This document shows, one piece after another, positions 17,833 through 45,171 of a stretch of DNA of 45,171 bases. Every line of letters begins with the position of its first letter. Position 1 is the first letter of the stretch. Position numbers and translations under genes: made by a program. Source of the stretch: Candidatus Omnitrophota bacterium (lineage in GTDB: Bacteria > Omnitrophota > Omnitrophia > Omnitrophales > Aquincolibacteriaceae); assembly GCA_043803685.1 (NCBI GenBank), contig JAZDJU010000106.1, positions 1 through 45,171 of the forward strand, written 5' to 3'. The notes beneath the pieces are model-generated. The model saw only the letters and a program-made list of their open reading frames with translations. It did no database searches and was not told the origin of the DNA.

Positions 17833-18767
17833 AAATCCGATCGACCGGTAAGGCTTCTCAATTCCGCTCACCACGTTTCGCGGGTTTTTCCCTCAAAAAA
17901 CAAAAACTCCCCAAGACTTTTGGTATTTTGACCACTCCCGCCAAGGATATTTTTCATTCGAATTATCATCTCGGGCTTCTTTCCGGGATCCTGCCGCGGA
18001 TCAAGGCAGTGAAGGGCCGGCTCAAGATCATTATGATGCCCTCCAAACCTTACAAAAGTTTGGATTTAATACTTGAAAAGCATCAGTTGGATGGACTTAT
18101 GATCCTGACCTGGCGGTGGATCCATCCTTCGATCGCGCGTCTGATCGAGACCACGCGCCATGCCAAGGTGCTCGTCGTTAACGATCCCGTTCCAGGACTT
18201 CGAGTGAACGCTGTTTTCACGGACGCGGATGCCGGCATGCGCCAGGCCGTCCGGCATCTTGCCCAAAAGGGTTTTCGCAGGATCGGGATGCTGCACGGGC
18301 CGTGGGAAGTCCCTTTCAAGGTTGGGAAGAAAACGGTCGCGGTGCCGTTCATCGATACCCAGCTCAAGGTCAAAGGACTCATGCGAGCGCTCAAGTCCGA
18401 AAAGCTCGTCTGCGACAGGGACTGGTTTCGCTCCGGAAAGGCCAACAGCGAATCTGAAGGATATCGTGTGATGAACGATTGGCTGAAGGAAAGTGATCTT
18501 CCGGAGGCGATTCTGTGCGGGAACGATGATCTCGCCTTTGGCGCGCTCAAAGCTATGAAAAAGTCCGGCCGGAAACTCGCAGTAATCGGGTTTGATGACA
18601 ATGAACGCGCGAAGAATTTTTCGCCGCCTCTTACGACCGTTCGCCAGCCGCTTGCTCAAATGGGGAAGGATGCCGTCGATATCCTCGTCCGACAGGTCGC
18701 GCGTCCAGTTGAAAAACCCATTCTCCGAAAGTATCTTCCGAAGTTGATCGTTCGCAAAACCGCCTGA
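17829..18767 (+). CDS. LacI-type ligand-binding domain protein lacking the HTH
   Basis: AVRHLAQKGFRRIGML, PEAILCGNDDLAFGAL and VIGFDD...PPLTTVRQP motifs; N-terminus is a short basic stretch. Confidence 0.8.
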   Translation: MKIRSTGKASQFRSPRFAGFSLKKQKLPKTFGILTTPAKDIFHSNYHLGLLSGILPRIKAVKGRLKIIMMPSKPYKSLDLILEKHQLDGLMILTWRWIHPSIARLIETTRHAKVLVVNDPVPGLRVNAVFTDADAGMRQAVRHLAQKGFRRIGMLHGPWEVPFKVGKKTVAVPFIDTQLKVKGLMRALKSEKLVCDRDWFRSGKANSESEGYRVMNDWLKESDLPEAILCGNDDLAFGALKAMKKSGRKLAVIGFDDNERAKNFSPPLTTVRQPLAQMGKDAVDILVRQVARPVEKPILRKYLPKLIVRKTA

Positions 18768-18772
18768 AGACA

Positions 18773-18860
18773 GGATGGCGGATAGAGGAAGGAGGATGGC
18801 GACAAAAAGTGTTTTTCGTCGTCTGCTTTTCGCCATCCACCATCCGCCTTCCTCCATCCC
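18773..18860. repeat. Inverted heptamer arrays, GGATGGC-type x4 and CGCCATC-type x4
   Basis: GGATGGC GGATAGA GGAAGGA GGATGGC at 18773-18800; CGCCATC CACCATC CGCCTTC CTCCATC at 18831-18858. Confidence 0.8.
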
Positions 18861-18936
18861 AAACGTATTACTTCCCGCATCAATATTCGCCTTCGTTTTG
18901 CCGTAAATGCCATTAGGACTTTTCATAAGGAGAAAT

Positions 18937-19726
18937 ATGCTTATCACGGCCATCGCGGTTGTCATTGCACTCGGATACTTTTTTTATCCGTTCCGGCTCA
19001 CCTGGGTCCGGTCTCTCTTGCGGTACCTGGCCGGATTTTTCTGTTTTTGGATGGCGCTTTTTTTTCGCCGTGCCTTCTGTCGACGGCCTGTTCGTGCACC
19101 GCGCGGGGATCGTCCTCTTGGCGCTCGGAGGGGGACTGCTCTGCATGGACCTCGTGATCTCGTCGGTGTTGTGGATCGCCGAACGGTTGGGCAATACGTT
19201 CCGGAAAACCCCTCAACTTCCTCATTATCTTCTCGAAATATGGTCGGCCATGGAACGGATGGCTTCGCGCAAGGTAGGCGCCTTGATCATCCTCCAGCGC
19301 AAGCAACCGCTCCGTCCGCACATGAAGGGCGGGATGCCGTTCGATGCCGAGATCAAGTCTGAGATCCTTGTGCCGCTTTTCCTGACCTCCTCGCCGGTCC
19401 ATGACGGAGCGCTTGTGGTGAATAAAGGCCGCATGCAGACCGTGAAAGGGATACTGCCTCTCGCGGCGCTTTCCGATCTTTCGCCGAGCTTCGGCACACG
19501 CCACCGCGCGGCGATCGGGATCACGGAAAAAACAGACGCGATCGCGCTTGTGGTTTCCGAAGAACGCGGCCAGATCAGCATCGCCTATCGCGGTTGTCTG
19601 GTCCATATCGCCGAACGTGAGGAATATTCGAGGACTCTCTTGTGGGCGCTCAAGGGGAGGAACATCCTCCGTCTCAAGAACGCGAGTTTCATCGTCACGA
19701 CCAAAGTGTTGGATGATCTGACATGA
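18937..19726 (+). pseudogene. Membrane-anchored diadenylate cyclase (DisA_N/CdaA-like), frameshifted at T8 tract 19058-19065
   Basis: SD AGGAG then ATG 18937 gives hydrophobic MLITAIAVV...WMALFF. Removing one T joins it to AVPSVDGL...HDGALVV...GTRHRAAIG...VVSEERG, with DGA and RHR motifs intact. Confidence 0.8.
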
Positions 19727-35137: not shown

Positions 35138-35166
35138 TTGACAAGGATTGCTAGTTCGTGTAAGGT
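35138..35166 (+). promoter_or_regulatory. Sigma70-type promoter of the riboswitch/giant-gene operon
   Basis: TTGACA (35138-35143), 17 bp, TAAGGT (35161-35166), about 30 nt upstream of the aptamer. Confidence 0.6.
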
Positions 35167-35198: not shown

Positions 35199-35275
35199 TG
35201 GTGTAAAGAGCAAACCTGGAGTAATCCAGGGGCGCAAAACCGTGCATCCTTGAAAGGATTGGCAGGTTGCCACCA
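35199..35275 (+). ncRNA. GEMM-I (c-di-GMP-I class) riboswitch, A20 variant
   Basis: P1 TGGTG/CACCA; TAAAGA-GCAAA-CCTGGA-GTAA-TCCAGG-GGCGCAAA-ACC...ATCCTT-GAAA-GGAT...GGTTGC matches GEMM-I layout with a GNRA loop. Position-20 equivalent (35209) is A. Confidence 0.88.
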
Positions 35276-35322
35276 TATGAATACGAGATTTGATGGTGAA
35301 AAAAAATCAGATCAAGCCAGGA

Positions 35323-35365
35323 GCCAGGTAAGGTCAAACTTTATCCTGGCGTTTTTTTTTTTTTT
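35323..35365 (+). terminator. Intrinsic terminator downstream of the GEMM aptamer
   Basis: GCCAGGTAAGGT-CAA-ACTTTATCCTGGC stem followed by G and T14. Confidence 0.8.
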
Positions 35366-35370
35366 AATCG

Positions 35371-35387
35371 AAAGTGCCAGGCACTTT
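35371..35387. repeat. REP-like perfect palindrome AAAGTGCC-A-GGCACTTT
   Basis: 8-bp arms with a 1-nt centre, about 140 bp upstream of the RAYT-fold gene. Confidence 0.7.
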
Positions 35388-35396
35388 TACTCTACG

Positions 35397-35440
35397 ACGG
35401 TCCCAATACTTATCAATTTCAACGGGGTTGAAATTGGGGC
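35397..35440 (+). repeat. 44-nt hairpin element, copy 2
   Basis: ACGGTCCCAATACTTATCAATTTCAACGGGGTTGAAATTGGGGC; stem CAATTTCAAC/GTTGAAATTG. Confidence 0.9.
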
Positions 35441-35529
35441 CGCCCAAACTACCATGTTGGAAATGAAATGGAAAGTTTGGGTGGGCCATTTTGAACCGGT
35501 GGCCGTGAAAGTCGGAAGGGGTGGGCGCC

Positions 35530-36186
35530 ATGCCTAGATTTCCGAGGATCCATTTAGAGGACGCCATTTATTCCATTCAGATGGAAGGTCCTTCCGGCGA
35601 GCCTATTTATAAAGATGCCGAGGATTACGGAAAATATCTAAGCATTCTTTCCCAGGCCAAGCAGGAATTCGGCTTCAAACTTTTCTCTTACGCGATCATG
35701 CCCGATCGCATTCATCTTTTGATCGAGCCGCAGGAAGATCATCCGGTCTCCCAGATCATGCAGAAGATCACGCCGAACTACACCAAGTACTATAATAGTA
35801 AATACGGCCGTAAAGGACATCTCTTTCCCAAACGCTTCCGTTCGGTCTATGTCGAGCGTAACGCCTATCTTCCCAAACTTACCCGTTTCATCCATCTTCT
35901 TCCGGAGAGGAGCGGCGTCGCCTCATGTTTCCGTGAATATCCTTATTCGAGTTACGCGGCTTATGCGTCGAACGCGAAGGGCCCCATCTTAGTCGAAGTG
36001 ACTGAGGTGATCCGATCGCTGGGCGTTGCTGTTTCCGAAGATCCCTACGAACGTTACATGCTTTCTGCGGACGACCGGGAGTTGGAATACCTCGAGAAGA
36101 AATTGTCCCGCGGTTCTTTCCTGGGTTCCGATGAGTTCGTTTCAAAGGTCCGCCAGGAGATCGCTCTTCACGCCGCAAAAAAATAA
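35530..36186 (+). CDS. RAYT/IS200-like Y1 transposase-fold protein with degenerate active site
   Basis: MPRFPRI...FKLFSYAIMPDRIHLLI...YTKYYNSKYGRKGHLF..RFRS...TRFIHLLPERSG...YPYSSY. HUH first His is Arg (35707) and the catalytic Tyr is Phe (35887). Confidence 0.85.
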   Translation: MPRFPRIHLEDAIYSIQMEGPSGEPIYKDAEDYGKYLSILSQAKQEFGFKLFSYAIMPDRIHLLIEPQEDHPVSQIMQKITPNYTKYYNSKYGRKGHLFPKRFRSVYVERNAYLPKLTRFIHLLPERSGVASCFREYPYSSYAAYASNAKGPILVEVTEVIRSLGVAVSEDPYERYMLSADDRELEYLEKKLSRGSFLGSDEFVSKVRQEIALHAAKK

Positions 36187-36792
36187 CAAGAAGCGCCCGT
36201 GGAAGAAGTCCTCGCGGAAGCGCCGGCATTTTCGGCTCCCGTTCCGGCGGAGCCTGTTCTCGCCGGAGGCTGGAAGATGCGTCCTATTATTCTTTCCGGA
36301 GCTTTGTTCGCGACGATCGCGCTCAGTTTCATCTCAACAACCTTTGATCGTCCGGTCAAACCGGTCGCGACTTCTGCGGTGTCCGCGGTTGGGACGAAGG
36401 CCCTCGAGAGCAAGATGGTCGCGCGCGCTACGCCTCGTACCTTTAAAGAGCCGATCGAAGGCATGATCTGGGAAGTGGAGATCTACACGATCACAAAGGA
36501 CGGCGCCACTCATCCCATCAAGGACAAGATCCGTTTCAACGGGAAGTCCTTCGAGTCCTATTACTTTTCAAGTCAGGGTTTTTCTCCTTCCAATTACACG
36601 GTGAAGGTCCGTGAGAATGGGGCCATTACCTGGGAAACGATGCAACGGAATCCCAAGGGAGAGCTCATCAGCTGGCGCGGCGACCTGGAAGGTGGCAGGA
36701 TGGAAGGCGTGATGAATTATCAAACCTCGGAGAAAAATATCCAGAATTTTTCTTTTTTAAGTAATGATATCGTGAGGCTGAAAAATGGATAA
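36187..36792 (+). CDS. In-frame continuation of the RAYT-fold gene: Pro/Ala/Glu linker, TM helix, beta-rich extracytoplasmic domain
   Basis: Same frame directly after TAA 36184-36186; no clear SD before GTG 36199; TM PIILSGALFATIALSFISTTF. Confidence 0.7.
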   Translation, partial: QEAPVEEVLAEAPAFSAPVPAEPVLAGGWKMRPIILSGALFATIALSFISTTFDRPVKPVATSAVSAVGTKALESKMVARATPRTFKEPIEGMIWEVEIYTITKDGATHPIKDKIRFNGKSFESYYFSSQGFSPSNYTVKVRENGAITWETMQRNPKGELISWRGDLEGGRMEGVMNYQTSEKNIQNFSFLSNDIVRLKNG

Positions 36793-37561
36793 AACCATAG
36801 CTTCTAGACTAAAGACTATAGACCCTAGCCTAGAAACAGAAAAACAAAAGGCTATAAGCTACGGGCTATATGCTATAGGCCTCATTTTCGCGATGGTTCT
36901 TTTCCCGCTCGTGGGATATGCCGCGACACAAACCTCGGATCATGCCGGCGACGCCTCAAGCGAACTTTCGGTCACGCTCAGTAAATCGATCGAGGCCGGT
37001 AAAGCGGTGGCGGGTCGTGCGCTTTCCAGCAAGGCAAAAGCGGCGAGCGCAGCAGCCGCTCCGTCAGCGGACATAACCCCGGAGATCATCGGTAGCACTC
37101 CTGAGAAAACAGCAGGCATTACAGGCAAGGCCACAGCCACTCAAGGAGCGAAGGTTTTGCCGGTCGCATCTCCCAAAAAGTATGTCTTTAAATATCCCGA
37201 CCTGCCGGTCCTCAGTGAAGATATGCAACCCGTGAAAAAAACGCTCACCGGCGAGGTGGGGGTTGTGATTAAGACGGGCATGAATGTCGAATTTGACCGT
37301 AAGGCGTCCTCTTCGACCGATCTCTGGGTCGAATTTACCCAGGGGACTCAAGTCGAGGGTGTGAAGGCTTTTAGTGAATTTCTTCCGGGCGATAAGGTGC
37401 AGATCACGTACGCGGAAGCCAAAGATCAATCGAAGCGCGCGGTGCGGTCGATCAAACTCTTGAAGAGAAAGACCGAGGAAGAGAAAAAGCGTGAAGCTGC
37501 GGCAGAAGCGCGCGCCGAAGCCGCAGCGGCTCAAAAATCAACCCGGGCGGAGGAGTCATGA
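36785..37561 (+). CDS. Exported protein with Ala/Ser/Thr-rich linker and C-terminal OB-fold-like domain
   Basis: Hydrophobic segment YGLYAIGLIFAMVLFPLVGYA; TLTGEVGVV...FSEFLPGDKVQITY; overlaps both neighbours. Confidence 0.7.
   Translation: MDKTIASRLKTIDPSLETEKQKAISYGLYAIGLIFAMVLFPLVGYAATQTSDHAGDASSELSVTLSKSIEAGKAVAGRALSSKAKAASAAAAPSADITPEIIGSTPEKTAGITGKATATQGAKVLPVASPKKYVFKYPDLPVLSEDMQPVKKTLTGEVGVVIKTGMNVEFDRKASSSTDLWVEFTQGTQVEGVKAFSEFLPGDKVQITYAEAKDQSKRAVRSIKLLKRKTEEEKKREAAAEARAEAAAAQKSTRAEES
36795..36878. repeat. Inverted heptamer arrays (CTATAGC-type x5, GCTATAG-type x4) inside the 5' end of a CDS
   Basis: CCATAGC TTCTAGA CTAAAGA CTATAGA CCCTAGC (36795-36829); GCTATAA GCTACGG GCTATAT GCTATAG (36851-36878). 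Confidence 0.7.
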
Positions 37562-40500
37562 ACTTAAGACCCTGCGTTAAAAAGGAGAGTGTTTTTTCCT
37601 CCCGCAGGGTGCGTCTGGCGGCGTTGGGTCTGGGCATCGTTCTGGCGTTCCTGGCCGCGATCCCGGACGCCGAAGCCGTCCAGATCAAGCGCGTTATTCA
37701 GGGTTCGGAAGCCTTTCTCGCGGACGACGTCTCGAACAGCGTTACGCTGGGTCTCGGCGTCGGTGATTATGTGGATACCAGCAAGGCCTTTATCTACATC
37801 ACCAGTTCGGTCGCGGGAACCACCGCCGACCAGAACATGTTCTTTTACGCCTACTTTGAAGACGGCCAGAATATCAATATCACGCGCGCCACCGGAACCG
37901 TTGTGGCGACTGTTACCTGGTATGTCGTGGAGTTCGTCGACGGCGTTTCCGTCCAGCGCGGCTTGACCAGTCTTGCCAAGGGCGATTTGACGAAAGATTG
38001 TATTTTGACGGCCGTGGACCAGACGAAATCGTTCCCCATTATCGGGGACGGCGGTTTGATCACCACCACGACGGACACGGAGGTTTTGACCGTCATGCCG
38101 TATTTTACAAGCGATACCGTGCTCCGCCTTCAGCGTATAAGAACCGCGACTAACGCCGGTATCGCAAAAACAGTGATCATCGCCTGGCAGGTCGTGCAAT
38201 TCGAGACCGACGCTTCGGTCGCGACGGGGAGCGGAACCATCGCAGCGGCCGCCACATCCGCCACAGCGACGATCAGTCCCGCTCTTAGCGCTTCCTACGC
38301 GACGCAGGCCTTTCCGCTCATTTATTATTCGGGGAATCTGGGTATTAACGGGATCGACTCCATGATCATGGTTCGCGGCAGGCTCACCGCGACGAACCAG
38401 ATCACGGTGAATCGTCGCATTGGAGGTTTGACCAACGACGACGTGTATTATCGAGTCTATGGCGTTGAATTGACGGATGGCGCGAGTACGGTGCAGAACA
38501 GCACCAAACAGCTCACGGCGGGTACGCTTACGAGTACCTCCACAATCACTTCGGTGGATTATGCCAACCGCGTTGTGCCGTTCATCAGTATGAGCGGAGG
38601 TAACGGGTCGAGCAATAACAGGATGGCGGACGATATCTTCACCCGTGTGGAGCTGACGAATGCCACGACCTTGACCTTTGCGCGTCAGGCGGCCAACAAC
38701 AGCATTGTGGTCGATCTTGATTTTAGCGCCGTGGAGTTTTGTCCGGTGACGATCAAGACGCCGAATGGCGGCGCGACGCAGCAGGGAGCAAACGCCTGGG
38801 TCGTGGGAACTAGCTACCAACTTCTCTGGAAACACGCGGACAGCGTGGCCGCCCATAATTGGAAACTTCAGTATTCGCTGAACTCGGGAGGCGCCTATTC
38901 GGATATGGGGAGTTGGTGCGGCGCGGCGGGGACGGCGGCGTGCTCGGGCACGGGAAATCTTTCGGCGGACTCGGGGTCGGCTGTCGCGAACGAAGGAAGC
39001 ATTCTCTGGACGATCCCTTCAAGCACCAATTTCATCGGAACTCTTGTGAGGCTCCGGCTGATTGATACGACGTTAACGGGTTCAGGTTATTCCGAGGCGA
39101 GAAGCCGTGACAGTTCCAATGCCGATTTTACGGTTCGCGGATCCGTGTCGGCCGTCGCTTTGGCGGATACGGATGGGGCCCTTAGCGCGGACAATCCGCT
39201 CGGCGTCGGGAATGCCGATCTCGGTGTGACCTGGTCTCACACGGGAGCGATCGGGAACGTGATTATCGAACTCGATCCTAACGGGGACGGGAATTACGCG
39301 GACGTCGTTACGATCAAAGCCAGCACGTCGGGTACTTCCGATGCCTGTAACGCCGCATGTACTGCCTGGACGGTTCCCGACAGCGTTTCCACGAACGCCA
39401 AGATCCGCGTTCGGGAATTAGCGCCGCCTTCGGGGACCACGGTGGAAGCGGTGAGCTCCGCGTTCGAGATCCGGCCGTTCCTTGCTTTTTTTAGACCGAT
39501 CGCGGGGGACACTTGGGTTCGAGGCCAGGCCCAGACGCCTACGGCCACGAACGGTGTGGTTCGCTGGTGTCAAAAGGGGACGGTTTCTCCCGGGGTGGAT
39601 ATTCGATATTCCGCGAACGCCGGCAACGCTTATTCAGGGGAAGCCAACAAAGTTGCTACGGGGCTTACTTCAAGCGGCACTTGCGACGCTTCGCATTTTT
39701 GCGCGGATTCCGGACAAACCGGTTGCACCGGGGGCACTCAATATAAGTATAACTGGACGCTTCCGGGGGATCTTACTTTGAGCGAAGGTAATGCAATGCT
39801 CAAGATCGTCAAGACGGGGGACCTTGCAGAGCTAGTCTCACATACTACCGGTCTTTTTACGACCAAGGCCTCGGTTCAGCTTGACGCGCCGATCGTCGAT
39901 TCCTCGGCTCCGCTGCGTTATCAGACAGGAGCCGAGCTCACCACTGTCAGCTGGACCAGTCCCGGCGGTGGACAGGGGGTTGTCCAACTCAGGTATTGCA
40001 ATGGTTATGTGGCCAACGGCTGTCAAGGCAATCCGGGCGATTCGGACTGGACTTTGATGACCGATCCTTCGACTGCCACGAATTTAACGACTCCGGGGTC
40101 GTACAACTGGAAAGTCCAGGCAGCGATCGGGACGGATGTCGGGATCATGGTTGCGGATATGACAAGCCCCACGCTGATCTATGCCATGAACGGGCCTTAT
40201 ACGGTCAAGGCCAGTATCACGGTGAACGAACCCGGAGGCGCTCAAACGATGCTGCAGGTCGGAGAGTCCCGGACGATCACATGGACCCCTTCCGGCACGA
40301 TCGGGACGGTTTACATCTGTCTCGATAAGACCGATAACGGGACCTGCGATTATGAAATCGCCGGCGCGGTCGAAAACGTACAGGCCACTGCGGGGCTCTG
40401 GAGTGATTGGCAGCCGCCGGCGGGCGGAGCCACGGAAGTTCCTAATGAGCAATGCACGAACTGCCGCATCCGTGTTTACAAGCCGGGCGATGGCGCGGAC

Positions 40501-43500
40501 CCGGCGGGAACGGTCGGAAAGTCCGGTCTTTTTTCCCTCGGTCGTGCGCTTAACACGGTCGCCGTCAGTGGAACGCCTCCCCGGAAGATCGGAGATGTCG
40601 TGGATGTCACCTGGACCGCTTTTCCGGACGATGCGACATGGACCGTGACGCCGAAATGGTCGACCGATGGTACAAGTTGGAATAATTTGTACAGTGGTCC
40701 TTCGACGCGGGCCGCCGATGGAAGCCCCAGCAGTTGGACGATCCCTGATGTGACGACGATCGTTTCTTCCTCCGTGCGCGTTCGCATTGAAGACGCCGCC
40801 AATAGCAGTCTTTACAGTGATTCGGCTCTGTTTCAGGTCAAAGGAAAGCTCATCCTTACGCAACCTGTGGGCTCTCCCTGGAAGATCGGTACGCCTCATG
40901 ATATCGTTTGGTCCCGGACCGGCGGTACCGCGATCGCGAATGTGAACATTAAATATTCGCTGGACGGTGGAATTAGCTATCCTTCTCAATATACGATCAA
41001 GAGTCTCAGTGGCGGCGGTAGTCCCTTTAGTTGGTGTGTCGGGAAAAATGATGGTTGCAGCGGGACGACCCCAGGTCAGCCTGCGAATGATCCTCTCCTG
41101 GTGATCGGGGCCAATGACAAGAATACGATCGTCAAGATCATGGTTGAAGATGCGGACGATACCAAGGGCAGTGTTGGGGGAGGGACCTACAGCGAGGCGA
41201 CCGCGGACATTACCATTCAAAAAGATTATGCGTCGGTTTTGATCGGAAACCTCGCGGCCGGCGCGGTTCTGTATGTCGGGGATACCAACGGGACGGACCG
41301 CATTAAATGGACGACGGTTGGGGATTCGACGAGCAATGTGTTTCTGGCGTATCAGACTAGCGGCTATACGTTCCCGACCAATAATATCAAGGACGTTCCG
41401 GGCGCAAGTGACGTCAACGCTTACCATTTGTGGACCGTTCCCGACGCTATTGGGGCCGCAGTCAAGGTCAGGGTCAAGAACGCGAATTTCCCCGATGATA
41501 TCTATGCGGATTCCGGTGCCTTCGTGATCAAGGGGAAGATCACGACCGCGTTCCCGACGACCGGTTCCGTGTTGGTGGTGGGACAGGACGTGCCAGGTGG
41601 TATTCAATACGCAAAATTCGGGGATATCGGGAATCTCGAGATCATTTACAGACACGGCACCTATGATACTGTGATCACGCCTCCAGCGAGTCCGGGTCCG
41701 GAAGGCACAAGTGAAGGGACCACTTTCTCGTGGAACGTGGTTTCGACGGATTCGAATAGTGACAGTGTGATCCACGTGGGGCTTGGCCAACCGACTAGCA
41801 AGTTCATACTGACCGGGTTGACGCAAAAAGGGGATCCCGCGTTGGAGGCGACCATCGAAACGCCGCTCTTCAAGATCCGCGGTGATCTTTATAACGGTGC
41901 GGCTTCCCAGCTTCTTTCGGAGCCGGGAGGCGGGGAAGTTTACGCGATCGGTGGGGTGACGCAACGCTATGTCCGTTGGCGAGCTCGCGGCATTATCGGG
42001 AACGTCCGGGTGCGTTTGGACTTGAACGACGGCAAGGGCGATGACGATACGGCCAACACCTCAGACGATTATGCCATCCAGGTCCAAAGGCCAAATGCGG
42101 CATGCGGGACGCCCCCCTGCTACGCGGAATCCGTCGCTTATAATCTCGAGGAAGATACCTCGGATACGGATAATTACAGCATGGAATGGCTCATCCCCGA
42201 TCTGTCGACGTATCAAGCCCGTATCCGGGTGGAGAGCCTGGACAATCCTTATGACTACAATGATCCCAGTAATGCCATGGCGACTTACGCCATCACCGGA
42301 AGGTACGACAACCAAAAGTTCTGGATCCGGCCCAGTGTGGCTGTGGTCTCTCCGAACGGCGCACAAAATCCCCAGTGGAAAACCGGCGAAACTGGAAAAT
42401 CGATCATCGTCAGTTCCAGTGGCGCCGCGAAGCTTGATGTCTGGCTTTGCTATAACAACGCCACGAGCGATTGGCCCGATTGCTCGACCAAATACGTGAT
42501 CACGTCAAACTTTCAGGTGAGTGCCGGCAATAGAGAATTTTCTTGGAATGTCCCCAATGATTTTAGTACCGAAAATGCCATCATCCATGTGCAGTGGTCG
42601 GACCAGACTTCGATCAGCGGTGAATCGGCCGCCATTTTCAAGATCAAATCGGCGCTAGGTGTCACCTACCCGAACCAGTTCAGCGATGAGATCGTCGTGG
42701 GCAGCAGCGACGGGTCCAATGACATCACCTGGACCGCGATCGGCGTCGGGCCTTCGGATACGGTGAAGATCAACGTCTCGACGGACGGGACGACCTGGAA
42801 TGACGGGACGCCGACCTACGCGAATCTGGGAGGATTGATCGTGGGTTCGGCCTCGGCGACGAGTGGTGTTTACACCTCCTGGACGGTCCAGGACATCATG
42901 TCGGATGCCGCAAAGATCCGAGTTTGTAAGAACGAAGGCGCTGCGACGGGCGAAGCGTGCGCGATCTCAAATGTTTTCAATATCACAGGTTCTATTTCTT
43001 CCGTTTATGTCAAAAATGCCGTGAACGATCCTGAGCCGCCAACGCCAGTGGTCGATCTTTCCATTCAGGACAAGACCAAGGTCATTACCTGGAAATACAC
43101 GGGGAGTCTGGGTACGGTCAATATTGACTACACCATTAACGCAAGTAATCTAACGCCTACCTGGTTTCCGGTGATCGGGTGCCAGGATGTTTCCGTGGGA
43201 GCCGGCGGAAGCGGTTCTTGCGTATGGGATCCAGTCACGGGTATTCCCGGGCCGCCTTCCGCGGACGTCAAGGTCCGTGTTTCCAACAAACAGCACCATA
43301 ATCCCACTCCCGATAGCTGGAAAGATCTGACGACGGTTGGAACGCAGACTCACAGTATTATTGGAAGTATCACGGAAGTCGGGGTCGTGCCGGATGCTGA
43401 CGGATCTGTTCTGAGAGTGGCCGGAAGCAAATCAATCCGCTGGAAGCAGAACGGGGGTATTACAAGTTTCGATATCAAATACAGGGTCGATGGTGGAAGC

Positions 43501-45171
43501 TGGCTTGGGACGGGCCTTACCGGTGTCGCAGGCGCGGAGAATGGCGGTTACCTGACCCAGGAATGGGCCGGGATCCCGGACGACATTTCCAACGATGTTG
43601 ATTTTCTCGTCGCGGACCACAATAACGCGGCCAAGGTTTTGTGTGCCAGTGACGACAACGCCACAGGGAAGTGTTCTGAGGGAAGTCCGAACGGTTTTAT
43701 TCTGAAAGGTCAATTGAGCATTGGGTCCCCGGTGGTGACGGATAACTGGACCATCGGAGCTACGCCGAGTCCCTCCATCCGTTGGACTAAGTACGGAAGT
43801 ATCGGGGATCTCAAGAGTGAATACTCAACGACCGGGACCTTCGCGGCCGGGGATTATTCGGGCGGGAATGTATACACGATCGAGAGCGCTTATCCTGCCG
43901 GTAGCGATGGAGTCAATAATTACGCGTGGCAGGTCGGTATCATCGGCGCGAACCGAAAACTTTCGGATACGGGCAAGATCCGCCTGACGACCGTGAGCCA
44001 GCCTGTCGGCGCGGAGCTGGATATTTCAAGCGATGCCTTCAAGATCCGTCCTTCCATTGATTCGATCGATAAACCGGTGGTCGGAGGGACCCCCACCGTG
44101 TGGTACGCGACGGATACAGATGCCGGGCAAACGATCGAGTGGGTCTCCAAGAGCGGCACCAAAACGAATGAGGTCGTTCCAACCTGTATTGTGGAATATT
44201 CGACGAACGGAACGGATTACACGACGGTCCCCGGTGGCGCCAGCGTTGATTGCAGTCAGGGCGGGCACAGTCTTGCATGGACTCCCATGGCCGATCTTCG
44301 AAGCACCACGGTTCGTGTCAGGATCTCCTACAATGATTACACATCCGTGAATCTCGATACCGGATCGGGAGGCCAATTTTTCACAGTTCGTCCAAAGATC
44401 GTGGTGACGCCGACACCGGATGCCACCACGAAGCTTGTTGTGGGGACGACTTATAACAATTTGATCAAGTGGACCTATTCGGGGACGACCACGAACCGGA
44501 AAGTGGAGATCCGCTATGACAAGAACAATGAGAACACTTTCCCCGCAAACCAGACGATCGCCACCGATATCGACGCGGGTACGGGAGCGACCGGAGTCAC
44601 CTGGACCAATGTTCCGAATATCATCGGGGCGGACGTGAAGGTTCGTGTGTTCGATTTGGATTTTACGGCGTCTCAGGATGATTCGCCCCCGTTCAAGATC
44701 GTGGGAGGCATTTATTTCGCGACGCCTCAAAGCGGGGTGAACCGTACGGCGGACACCACGATGAACATCACCTGGACCTACACGGGGACGATCGCGAATT
44801 TTGACATCTATTACAGTGCCAATAGCGGCGGTGACTGGACTGTGGATCCGATCGGGAGCGCGACCGACGTGGGGAATTGCGCGGCCGGGAGCTGCAGTTT
44901 TTCATGGCTTGACACCCAAGCCGACAACATCGACGCCGTATTGAACACGGCTCGCTTCAAGATCACGAACGCCCTTGCCTCCAGCGCGCCACTTTATGCT
45001 GAAAGTGTCGCCGCATCCGATTTCAAGCGCGGCGCGTCTGTTTCGAATTTGCTTCCCGCGAACGGTCAGGTGATCTCGGCGGGATCGACGGATACGGACA
45101 TTACCTGGAACAAGCTGAAGGGTTTGTCGGCGGATACGAAGCTGAAGATCGAGTACACGAAGAACGCTTCT
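37558..45171 (+). CDS. Giant secreted surface protein with tandem Ig-like repeats, >2538 aa, 3' truncated (absent from ORF track)
   Basis: ATG 37558 after GGAGGAG overlaps the upstream TGA. Signal peptide RRVRLAALGLGIVLAFLAAIPDAEA-V. I saw no stop in this frame up to ...KIEYTKNAS. Repeats of P.GG..W.VG...I.W...G....V.I.YS.DG...W. Confidence 0.93.
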   Translation, partial: MNLRPCVKKESVFSSRRVRLAALGLGIVLAFLAAIPDAEAVQIKRVIQGSEAFLADDVSNSVTLGLGVGDYVDTSKAFIYITSSVAGTTADQNMFFYAYFEDGQNINITRATGTVVATVTWYVVEFVDGVSVQRGLTSLAKGDLTKDCILTAVDQTKSFPIIGDGGLITTTTDTEVLTVMPYFTSDTVLRLQRIRTATNAGIAKTVIIAWQVVQFETDASVATGSGTIAAAATSATATISPALSASYATQAFPLIYYSGNLGINGIDSMIMVRGRLTATNQITVNRRIGGLTNDDVYYRVYGVELTDGASTVQNSTKQLTAGTLTSTSTITSVDYANRVVPFISMSGGNGSSNNRMADDIFTRVELTNATTLTFARQAANNSIVVDLDFSAVEFCPVTIKTPNGGATQQGANAWVVGTSYQLLWKHADSVAAHNWKLQYSLNSGGAYSDMGSWCGAAGTAACSGTGNLSADSGSAVANEGSILWTIPSSTNFIGTLVRLRLIDTTLTGSGYSEARSRDSSNADFTVRGSVSAVALADTDGALSADNPLGVGNADLGVTWSHTGAIGNVIIELDPNGDGNYADVVTIKASTSGTSDACNAACTAWTVPDSVSTNAKIRVRELAPPSGTTVEAVSSAFEIRPFLAFFRPIAGDTWVRGQAQTPTATNGVVRWCQKGTVSPGVDIRYSANAGNAYSGEANKVATGLTSSGTCDASHFCADSGQTGCTGGTQYKYNWTLPGDLTLSEGNAMLKIVKTGDLAELVSHTTGLFTTKASVQLDAPIVDSSAPLRYQTGAELTTVSWTSPGGGQGVVQLRYCNGYVANGCQGNPGDSDWTLMTDPSTATNLTTPGSYNWKVQAAIGTDVGIMVADMTSPTLIYAMNGPYTVKASITVNEPGGAQTMLQVGESRTITWTPSGTIGTVYICLDKTDNGTCDYEIAGAVENVQATAGLWSDWQPPAGGATEVPNEQCTNCRIRVYKPGDGADPAGTVGKSGLFSLGRALNTVAVSGTPPRKIGDVVDVTWTAFPDDATWTVTPKWSTDGTSWNNLYSGPSTRAADGSPSSWTIPDVTTIVSSSVRVRIEDAANSSLYSDSALFQVKGKLILTQPVGSPWKIGTPHDIVWSRTGGTAIANVNIKYSLDGGISYPSQYTIKSLSGGGSPFSWCVGKNDGCSGTTPGQPANDPLLVIGANDKNTIVKIMVEDADDTKGSVGGGTYSEATADITIQKDYASVLIGNLAAGAVLYVGDTNGTDRIKWTTVGDSTSNVFLAYQTSGYTFPTNNIKDVPGASDVNAYHLWTVPDAIGAAVKVRVKNANFPDDIYADSGAFVIKGKITTAFPTTGSVLVVGQDVPGGIQYAKFGDIGNLEIIYRHGTYDTVITPPASPGPEGTSEGTTFSWNVVSTDSNSDSVIHVGLGQPTSKFILTGLTQKGDPALEATIETPLFKIRGDLYNGAASQLLSEPGGGEVYAIGGVTQRYVRWRARGIIGNVRVRLDLNDGKGDDDTANTSDDYAIQVQRPNAACGTPPCYAESVAYNLEEDTSDTDNYSMEWLIPDLSTYQARIRVESLDNPYDYNDPSNAMATYAITGRYDNQKFWIRPSVAVVSPNGAQNPQWKTGETGKSIIVSSSGAAKLDVWLCYNNATSDWPDCSTKYVITSNFQVSAGNREFSWNVPNDFSTENAIIHVQWSDQTSISGESAAIFKIKSALGVTYPNQFSDEIVVGSSDGSNDITWTAIGVGPSDTVKINVSTDGTTWNDGTPTYANLGGLIVGSASATSGVYTSWTVQDIMSDAAKIRVCKNEGAATGEACAISNVFNITGSISSVYVKNAVNDPEPPTPVVDLSIQDKTKVITWKYTGSLGTVNIDYTINASNLTPTWFPVIGCQDVSVGAGGSGSCVWDPVTGIPGPPSADVKVRVSNKQHHNPTPDSWKDLTTVGTQTHSIIGSITEVGVVPDADGSVLRVAGSKSIRWKQNGGITSFDIKYRVDGGSWLGTGLTGVAGAENGGYLTQEWAGIPDDISNDVDFLVADHNNAAKVLCASDDNATGKCSEGSPNGFILKGQLSIGSPVVTDNWTIGATPSPSIRWTKYGSIGDLKSEYSTTGTFAAGDYSGGNVYTIESAYPAGSDGVNNYAWQVGIIGANRKLSDTGKIRLTTVSQPVGAELDISSDAFKIRPSIDSIDKPVVGGTPTVWYATDTDAGQTIEWVSKSGTKTNEVVPTCIVEYSTNGTDYTTVPGGASVDCSQGGHSLAWTPMADLRSTTVRVRISYNDYTSVNLDTGSGGQFFTVRPKIVVTPTPDATTKLVVGTTYNNLIKWTYSGTTTNRKVEIRYDKNNENTFPANQTIATDIDAGTGATGVTWTNVPNIIGADVKVRVFDLDFTASQDDSPPFKIVGGIYFATPQSGVNRTADTTMNITWTYTGTIANFDIYYSANSGGDWTVDPIGSATDVGNCAAGSCSFSWLDTQADNIDAVLNTARFKITNALASSAPLYAESVAASDFKRGASVSNLLPANGQVISAGSTDTDITWNKLKGLSADTKLKIEYTKNAS

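Follow-up and report, generated by a model that had tools for sequence, protein, structure and literature searches.

The window, by which we mean the whole 45,171-nucleotide stretch of DNA analysed here, ends in an operon of three overlapping genes on the plus strand, headed by a riboswitch leader. The leader carries a GEMM-I (c-di-GMP-I) aptamer, delimited at 35199–35275 (plus strand) by covariance model and alignment. Rfam model RF01051 matches 35199–35274 over its full span (1–87), scoring 56.8 bits where the gathering score is 35 (E = 1.3e-8), and this is the sole GEMM-I match when the host genome (G000) is searched with that model. The original prediction of a GEMM-I riboswitch aptamer at 35199, for which a covariance-model check had been proposed, is thus borne out. 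The marks of the family are all in place: a 5-bp P1 stem (UGGUG/CACCA, 35199–35203/35271–35275), P2 (35215–35230, CCUGGA/UCCAGG closed by a GNRA-type GUAA loop), P3 (35239–35267, placed by alignment), the G21-CAAA motif, and the bases A47 (35236) and C92 (35270), the last two labels being what we take to be their numbers in Vc2. C92, which on that numbering pairs with the ligand guanine, is invariant in all seven aligned leaders, and P2 shows compensatory changes among the same number of aligned orthologous leaders. Counting from G14 (35203) through the six nucleotides UAAAGA to G21-CAAA (35210–35214) places A35209 at position 20, and sequence and alignment agree here with the original prediction. 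The canonical c-di-GMP pocket, with G at this position, is absent, while the sequence mark of GEMM-Ib, A20 together with C92, is present. Position 20 is the base that faces the alpha nucleobase of the ligand, and is G in Vc2 (PMC6140456). Since A20 variants still bind c-di-GMP, the absence of G20 lowers the case for a canonical pocket but not for family membership.

A35209 is not an assembly error, because three congeneric genomes (G004, G005 and G007) likewise have A at position 20. From run X2, a single low-depth contig spans 35133–35305 with no differences, and no change is listed at 35209 in the covering contigs of runs X1, X3, X5 and X7 (depth 2–4). Upstream of the aptamer lies a candidate sigma-70 promoter (35138–35166, plus strand), read from the sequence as TTGACA (35138–35143), a 17 nt spacer and TAAGGT (35161–35166). 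A consensus promoter scan did not flag it, and its −10 box matches at only three of six positions; TTGACA is retained at equal spacing in G004, G005, G007 and the related locus L145.

The first gene of the operon (35530–36792, plus strand) encodes a RAYT/Y1_Tnp-like domain (PF01797), a predicted membrane helix and, C-terminally, a further domain. The gene is split by an in-frame TAA at 36184–36186, just before the membrane helix, where the congeners have Glu; the gene is intact in G004, G005 and G007 (422–423 aa), and the stop may be either a real mutation or an assembly error. Taking an HUH motif and a catalytic Tyr as the marks of an active RAYT/Y1 transposase, as we presume them to be, the protein has neither: HUH reads RIH and Phe occupies the Tyr position. 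Both are intact in 12 of 81 homologues (P0001–P0081), and a hydrophobic stretch of 19 residues is found in 75 of the 81. Wherever checked, the RAYT-like gene comes first in the giant-gene operon. The family may be a domesticated, membrane-anchored regulator that binds nucleic acid. A literature search on inactive membrane-bound RAYT proteins yielded nothing relevant.

The second gene (36785–37561, plus strand) overlaps both neighbours and encodes a 258-aa protein with a hydrophobic N-terminal stretch and no Pfam match, which is likely to be exported, judging by its sequence. The third (37558–45171, plus strand), open at the contig end, encodes a giant protein, likely exported as well, whose 2,538 or more residues open with a signal-peptide-like stretch, contain internal repeats and match no Pfam model. 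The gene order RAYT-like/small/giant is conserved in G004, G005, G007 and G037 and in two genomes of a distant family (G143 and G117), and the same leader is present in L139 and L142 (Candidatus Omnitrophota); the named homologues of the RAYT-like protein likewise belong to Candidatus Omnitrophota. In sixteen of the 19 other genomes of the genus neither the aptamer nor the RAYT-like gene was seen. Elsewhere in the host genome, contig C75 (minus strand) opens with a 5,861-aa stretch of repeats resembling those of the giant protein and may be the continuation of the operon, which the repeats themselves make uncertain; after them come ATP-synthase-like genes and then a cluster of type II secretion/pilus-like genes, in which an ATPase is fused to PilZ. 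Very long ORFs are numerous in this genome, with eight frames above 5,000 aa, the longest of at least 10,126 aa.

Cyclic-dinucleotide enzymes and receptors

The identity of the base at position 20 leaves two candidate ligands. In the Geobacter GEMM-Ib aptamers A20 is reported to read the adenine of cGAMP, and in Gm0970 a single A20G change flips selectivity to give a c-di-GMP sensor (PMC6456294). For the Vc2 G20A variant the reported affinities are 53 nM for c-di-GMP and 120 nM for cGAMP; Cbe 1-2, whose A20 is natural, is reported to bind c-di-GMP at 30 nM, via a protonated A, and cGAMP at 463 nM (PMC6140456). Because protonated A20 binds c-di-GMP, A20 fits both ligands, and which of them is physiological has to be judged from the genome context.

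Hypr enzymes are described as having Ser or Thr at GacA position 348 together with a GGDE(F/Y) motif (PMC6456294). None of the 11 GGDEF domains in the 91%-complete host genome shows this combination: in ten the Hypr position is occupied by Asp, while the eleventh is degenerate and lacks the motif. Among 23 GGDEF matches in G004, G005 and G007, 19 have Asp, three are degenerate and one has Ser. The search for Hypr-type GGDEF enzymes that had been suggested alongside the original prediction was therefore negative in the host and all three congeners, as the single Ser match (L132, G005:C53:25-3525) comes from a chimeric contig. At a junction inside the motif its GC content drops from 0.63–0.70 to about 0.50; only the part after the junction matches the native gene of relatives, and the motif reads GGEEF, a combination with Ser that is reported to be inactive (PMC6456294). 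L132 thus joins a high-GC foreign Ser-type GGDEF gene to a native one, a trap for Hypr surveys. The other 12 matches of a loose Hypr pattern applied across the order fall outside GGDEF frames.

Nor did we find a DncV-like cyclase: the CD-NTase models PF18144, PF21654, NF041078 and NF041117 have no match in G000, G004, G005 or G007, SMODS is absent from all five genomes searched, and PF21654 occurs in none of 20 genomes of the genus and in two of 96 in the order, neither of them in the genus. On the degradation side, cGAMP-specific HD-GYP enzymes are reported to carry RxxQ or RxxN (bioRxiv 600031). All four HD-GYP matches in the host read RxxR, two of them without the HD pair, and the seven readable matches of nine in the congeners read RxxR or RxxK, so that neither RxxQ nor RxxN occurs in the host or in the readable congener matches. 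No route for cGAMP uptake was identified. Completeness of the host assembly stands at 91%, so a synthase could be missing from it; contamination is 6.6%, and strain duplicates seem to account for two of the protein pairs.

By its sequence, the host makes and reads c-di-GMP: the Asp-type GGDEF and RxxR HD-GYP domains are accompanied by seven PilZ matches and three MshEN-like motifs as receptors. Proteins on contigs C31 and C68 combine REC and GGDDF with a C-terminal MshEN-like motif, so that a single chain holds both a synthase fold and a receptor motif for c-di-GMP. The genome also has two diadenylate cyclase (DAC) domain genes with ordinary DGA and RHR motifs, one in the window (19145–19726) and one on contig C72.

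Position 20 in orthologous leaders and across Omnitrophota

The same operon is preceded by aptamers with either base. Six leaders have A20 (G000, G004, G005, G007, G143 and G117) and seven have G20 (L143, L144, L145, G035, G037, G024 and G058, in the last of which the RAYT-like gene was not seen adjoining the leader). In a gene tree, from which four of 11 loci were dropped because their start motif was not found, the G20 locus L145 falls inside a well-supported clade with the four A20 congeners. The tree does not resolve the branching order of these five close relatives, nor therefore the order in which A20 was gained or lost. That affinity changed is more likely than that one operon repeatedly exchanged its messenger while the enzymes stayed as they were. 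On the other side of the argument, A20 is present in six of the 13 operon leaders compared with 9% of aptamers phylum-wide, a comparison in which kin are not independent. Being over-represented in these leaders, kept in whole clades and found in two distant lineages, it looks selected rather than random.

RF01051 matches were found in 41 of 61 genomes of the order. Position 20 was examined in 97 of 105 matches, eight weak ones below the cut-off being left out, and was G in 80, A in eight, C in three and unassigned in six; the C20 variants are in G021 and G023. By inspection, the ORFs downstream of the order's aptamers often look exported or pilin-like. A fixed aptamer-core pattern, run over 401 genomes of the phylum, matched 562 times (11 times in the reversed control) in 258 of them, with up to 11 cores per genome. 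A20 accounts for 53 of these matches (9%) in 48 genomes, 36 of which also have G20 copies and 12 of which have A20 only, among them G118 (three of three) and G344 (two of two). It was found in eight of 11 genomes of family f21 and in all four congeners. Tandem aptamers were also encountered: at L028 (G029:C11:1389-1612) two GEMM-I aptamers, the first A20 and the second G20, precede one gene, and G073 has two in tandem, both A20.

The Ser/Thr Hypr signature, searched as a pattern across the phylum, matched in three of 401 genomes: the chimera in G005, a non-GGDEF frame in G183, and G204. The pattern is strict; it would match eight of the ten motif-bearing host domains and misses N-N variants. 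The Ser/GGDEF protein of G204 (L168/L256, G204:C31, about 18216–19220) is the only credible Hypr candidate in the 401 genomes, and G204 has no match to the aptamer pattern. In the A20-rich genomes G118, G344, G132 and G134 the GGDEF domains read have Asp, in one case Asn, or degenerate residues. An Asn-type GGDEF was considered as a hidden synthase and rejected, since the genus has none and such domains are no more frequent in A20 genomes than in others (11 of 48 versus 62 of 353, Fisher p = 0.42, with kin not independent). A20 by itself is a poor marker of cGAMP signalling, given that about one aptamer in ten has it and a credible Hypr enzyme was found in one of 401 genomes. A search of the literature for Omnitrophota with riboswitches or c-di-GMP yielded no description of these aptamers, although the supplements of the 2015 papers may list some; in the accessible parts of the ComFB papers that co-mention Omnitrophota and c-di-GMP or riboswitches, the subject is unrelated to them.

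On this evidence, we consider that the RNA is probably an A20 GEMM-I riboswitch with a terminator that heads a giant-protein operon, senses c-di-GMP via protonated A20 and acts as an OFF switch. By analogy with the characterized A20 aptamers it is probably bispecific in vitro, binding cGAMP too. C-di-GMP would sit between protonated A20, A47 and C92 with an affinity below that of G20 aptamers, and a higher c-di-GMP level would then be needed for switching than at the G20 copies. The original prediction of a possible 3',3'-cGAMP sensor therefore stands in part: the aptamer has A20, and binding of 3',3'-cGAMP in vitro is very likely, but cGAMP as a signal within the cell is not supported, as Hypr GGDEF, DncV-like cyclase and RxxQ/N HD-GYP enzymes are all lacking and orthologous leaders alternate between A20 and G20. 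Since the genomic tests for both the Hypr and the DncV pathways failed, we do not file the RNA as a cGAMP riboswitch.

The main alternative is that this is a true GEMM-Ib-type sensor of 3',3'-cGAMP, the messenger being made by an unrecognised synthase, by an enzyme encoded in what the assembly lacks, or by host or prey cells. A20, A47 and C92 make up the GEMM-Ib pocket, A20 recurs in the operon leaders of both genus g1 and family f24, and a quarter of the A20 genomes (12 of 48) have no G20 copy. Most Omnitrophota have been proposed to be predators or parasites (PMC10066038), and one genome of the phylum sample, G204, does have a credible Hypr GGDEF. We nevertheless regard this as unlikely. No source for the messenger was found in the host or its A20 congeners, whether Ser/Thr GGDEF, DncV-like cyclase or uptake route, and RxxQ/N HD-GYP domains are missing too; the two DAC domains are ordinary, the GGDEF domains read in four A20-rich genomes are not of Ser/Thr type, and Asn-type GGDEFs do not follow A20. 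In its broadest form, the idea would make the Omnitrophota A20 riboswitches true cGAMP sensors without a known synthase that gate a giant surface-protein operon on contact, with the messenger made by an undescribed synthase family or by prey or host cells; this we consider quite improbable. Were cGAMP the true ligand, one would have to look for a new synthase or suppose that the messenger of another cell is being sensed.

Terminator and switching logic

Downstream of the aptamer, sequence and predicted fold define an intrinsic terminator (35323–35365, plus strand), consisting of a hairpin (35323–35350) and a run of 14 U (35352–35365). A simple terminator scan did not flag it, but a hairpin and U run follow the aptamer in all 12 leaders analysed. 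Between aptamer and terminator a hairpin is predicted at 35287–35313 (plus strand; GATTTGAT/ATCAGATC), partly retained in orthologues. Beyond the terminator lies a palindrome, AAAGTGCC-A-GGCACTTT (35371–35387, plus strand), which is single-copy in the genome and presumably REP-like; its core, AAGTGCCAGG, recurs in most of the leaders compared, where it precedes the orthologous gene, and the palindrome is a candidate site for the putative RAYT-like regulator. A short dispersed repeat identified by blastn is inserted further along the leader (35400–35481, plus strand). It is absent from G004, G005 and G007 and present in L145, and related copies of this hairpin-rich element occur at 947–990 and on 13 other contigs.

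Two competing pairings had been proposed on the basis of the sequence, ACCTGG in the aptamer with CCAGGT in the terminator arm, and CACCAT with ATGGTG. Both are indeed present as sequence; neither works as an antiterminator. Six-base-pair helices of this kind are no more than chance, several of similar strength being found in every orthologous leader. ACCTGG/CCAGGT must open P2, at a modelled cost of 5.7 kcal/mol before and 11.5 kcal/mol after the terminator 3' arm is made, and it is broken in four of the six other orthologues (G004, L145, L143 and G035). CACCAT/ATGGTG, whose ATGGTG is overlapped by the linker hairpin, competes with P1 and yet is compatible with an intact terminator; the pairing is full only in G000, with five of six pairs in L145 and four of six in G004, G005 and G007.

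Equilibrium folding gave a terminator probability of about 1.0 for the G000 leader (0.80 + 0.20, in two registers) with the aptamer locked or not, and no antiterminator was found in this copy. Given that the aptamer makes no difference to terminator formation at equilibrium, switching by this copy, if it occurs, has to be kinetic. This has precedents, in that the Cd1 and pilM riboswitches are reported to switch kinetically (PMC9262584). Among the long-linker leaders no conserved antiterminator was found in constant register. Folding revealed an antiterminator-like helix only in the compact leaders of G143, G117 and G024: in G143 and G117 transcripts truncated before the terminator 3' arm, 8 bp form between the 5' strand of P3 and the 5' half of the terminator, and the G024 transcript folds into a comparable aptamer–terminator helix. 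Such a helix implies OFF logic, in which free RNA antiterminates and bound RNA terminates. Carried over by homology to the G000 copy, OFF is the direction we lean towards. With ligand bound, the aptamer would sequester strands that in the free RNA pair with the terminator 5' arm, allowing the terminator to form, and the RAYT-like, small exported and giant genes would then not be transcribed.

The same observations could be read as a sign that the aptamer is uncoupled or decaying in G000, the terminator forming regardless of ligand and the operon being weakly read through. Beyond the equilibrium folds and the lack of a conserved antiterminator helix in long-linker leaders, this would accommodate the in-frame stop in the RAYT-like gene, which has no counterpart in congeners, the position of G000 on the longest branch of the gene tree, the 14-U run and repeat insertion in its leader, and the loss from view of both aptamer and gene in most other genomes of the genus (16 of 19). 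However, the aptamer is nearly invariant among congeners and shows compensatory changes in P2, although the downstream coding DNA is only 79–91% identical, and the distance from aptamer to U run is held at 80–83 nt in eight of nine long-linker leaders. Transcriptional riboswitches are also reported to work kinetically, which equilibrium folding does not capture (PMC9262584), and the stop may be an assembly error. Uncoupling seems to us unlikely. It is very improbable that G19 (35208) slips into the pocket with A20 looped out, so that c-di-GMP is bound as by an ordinary G20 aptamer: G-UAAAGA-GCAAA in G000 can be read as G-AAAAG-GCAAA of L145 with one inserted A, and many A20 copies have G19, but in G004, whose leader is nearly identical otherwise, positions 19 and 20 are both A, and U19 or A19 is found in many other A20 copies.

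Comparison with known systems

The preferred reading, an A20 riboswitch that probably responds to c-di-GMP, connects this RNA with the giant genes of Omnitrophota. As in published cases (bioRxiv 2023.11.21.568195; PMC10066038), the G000 gene encodes a very long, mostly unannotated and probably exported protein; it differs from them in having no Pfam domain in the available 2,538 aa and in that the gene for a RAYT-like membrane protein leads the operon. A link to c-di-GMP had already been suggested, on the strength of PilZ and GGDEF domains in the neighbourhood of giant genes (bioRxiv 2023.11.21.568195). The accessible parts of that preprint, of the phylum survey (PMC10066038) and of a 2026 complete-genome preprint do not mention riboswitches, and we found no report of riboswitch control of an Omnitrophota giant-protein operon in the literature searched. 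A conserved GEMM-I copy heads this operon across distant families, and offers a testable handle on the control of giant surface proteins in uncultured, likely predatory bacteria. The natural A20/G20 pairs on one operon also provide test material for other determinants of ligand choice.

With regard to mechanism, the closest comparison is the Cd1 c-di-GMP OFF switch of Clostridioides difficile (PMC9262584), likewise a GEMM-I RNA with a long linker and an aptamer and terminator that can coexist. In Cd1, as in the logic predicted for G000, ligand would favour termination. The Cd1 antiterminator was mapped by NMR, whereas here such a helix is seen in the compact orthologues G143, G117 and G024 and not in G000.

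The Geobacter GEMM-Ib system (Gs1761, Gm0970 and pilM, with the Hypr GGDEF enzyme GacA) shares A20, an intrinsic terminator and control of surface proteins with G000. In Geobacter such aptamers are reported to be many (12–13 of 17), to act as ON switches and to be accompanied by a synthase of the Ser348/GGDEF type, whereas G000 has one aptamer, no Ser/Thr GGDEF and no RxxQ/N HD-GYP, and its orthologous leaders suggest OFF.

Vc2 of Vibrio cholerae (RF01051) agrees with the G000 aptamer in P1–P3, G21-CAAA, A47 and C92, and differs in having G20, a GAAA rather than a GUAA loop in P2, and a translational platform in place of a transcriptional terminator, besides the difference in host phylum. Like most copies in the order, judged by inspection of downstream ORFs, the G000 aptamer precedes surface or secretion genes. 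Cbe 1-2 of Clostridium beijerinckii and Vc2 G20A (PMC6140456) have A20 and C92 in common with it, and as in these two, the G000 aptamer is predicted to bind c-di-GMP via protonated A20 and cGAMP via neutral A20. Its P1 is the 5-bp UGGUG/CACCA stem, a point of interest because the make-up of P1 has been suggested to shift selectivity (PMC6140456). Set beside these systems, the G000 RNA most likely belongs to an established riboswitch class and carries a variant already known to be tolerated.
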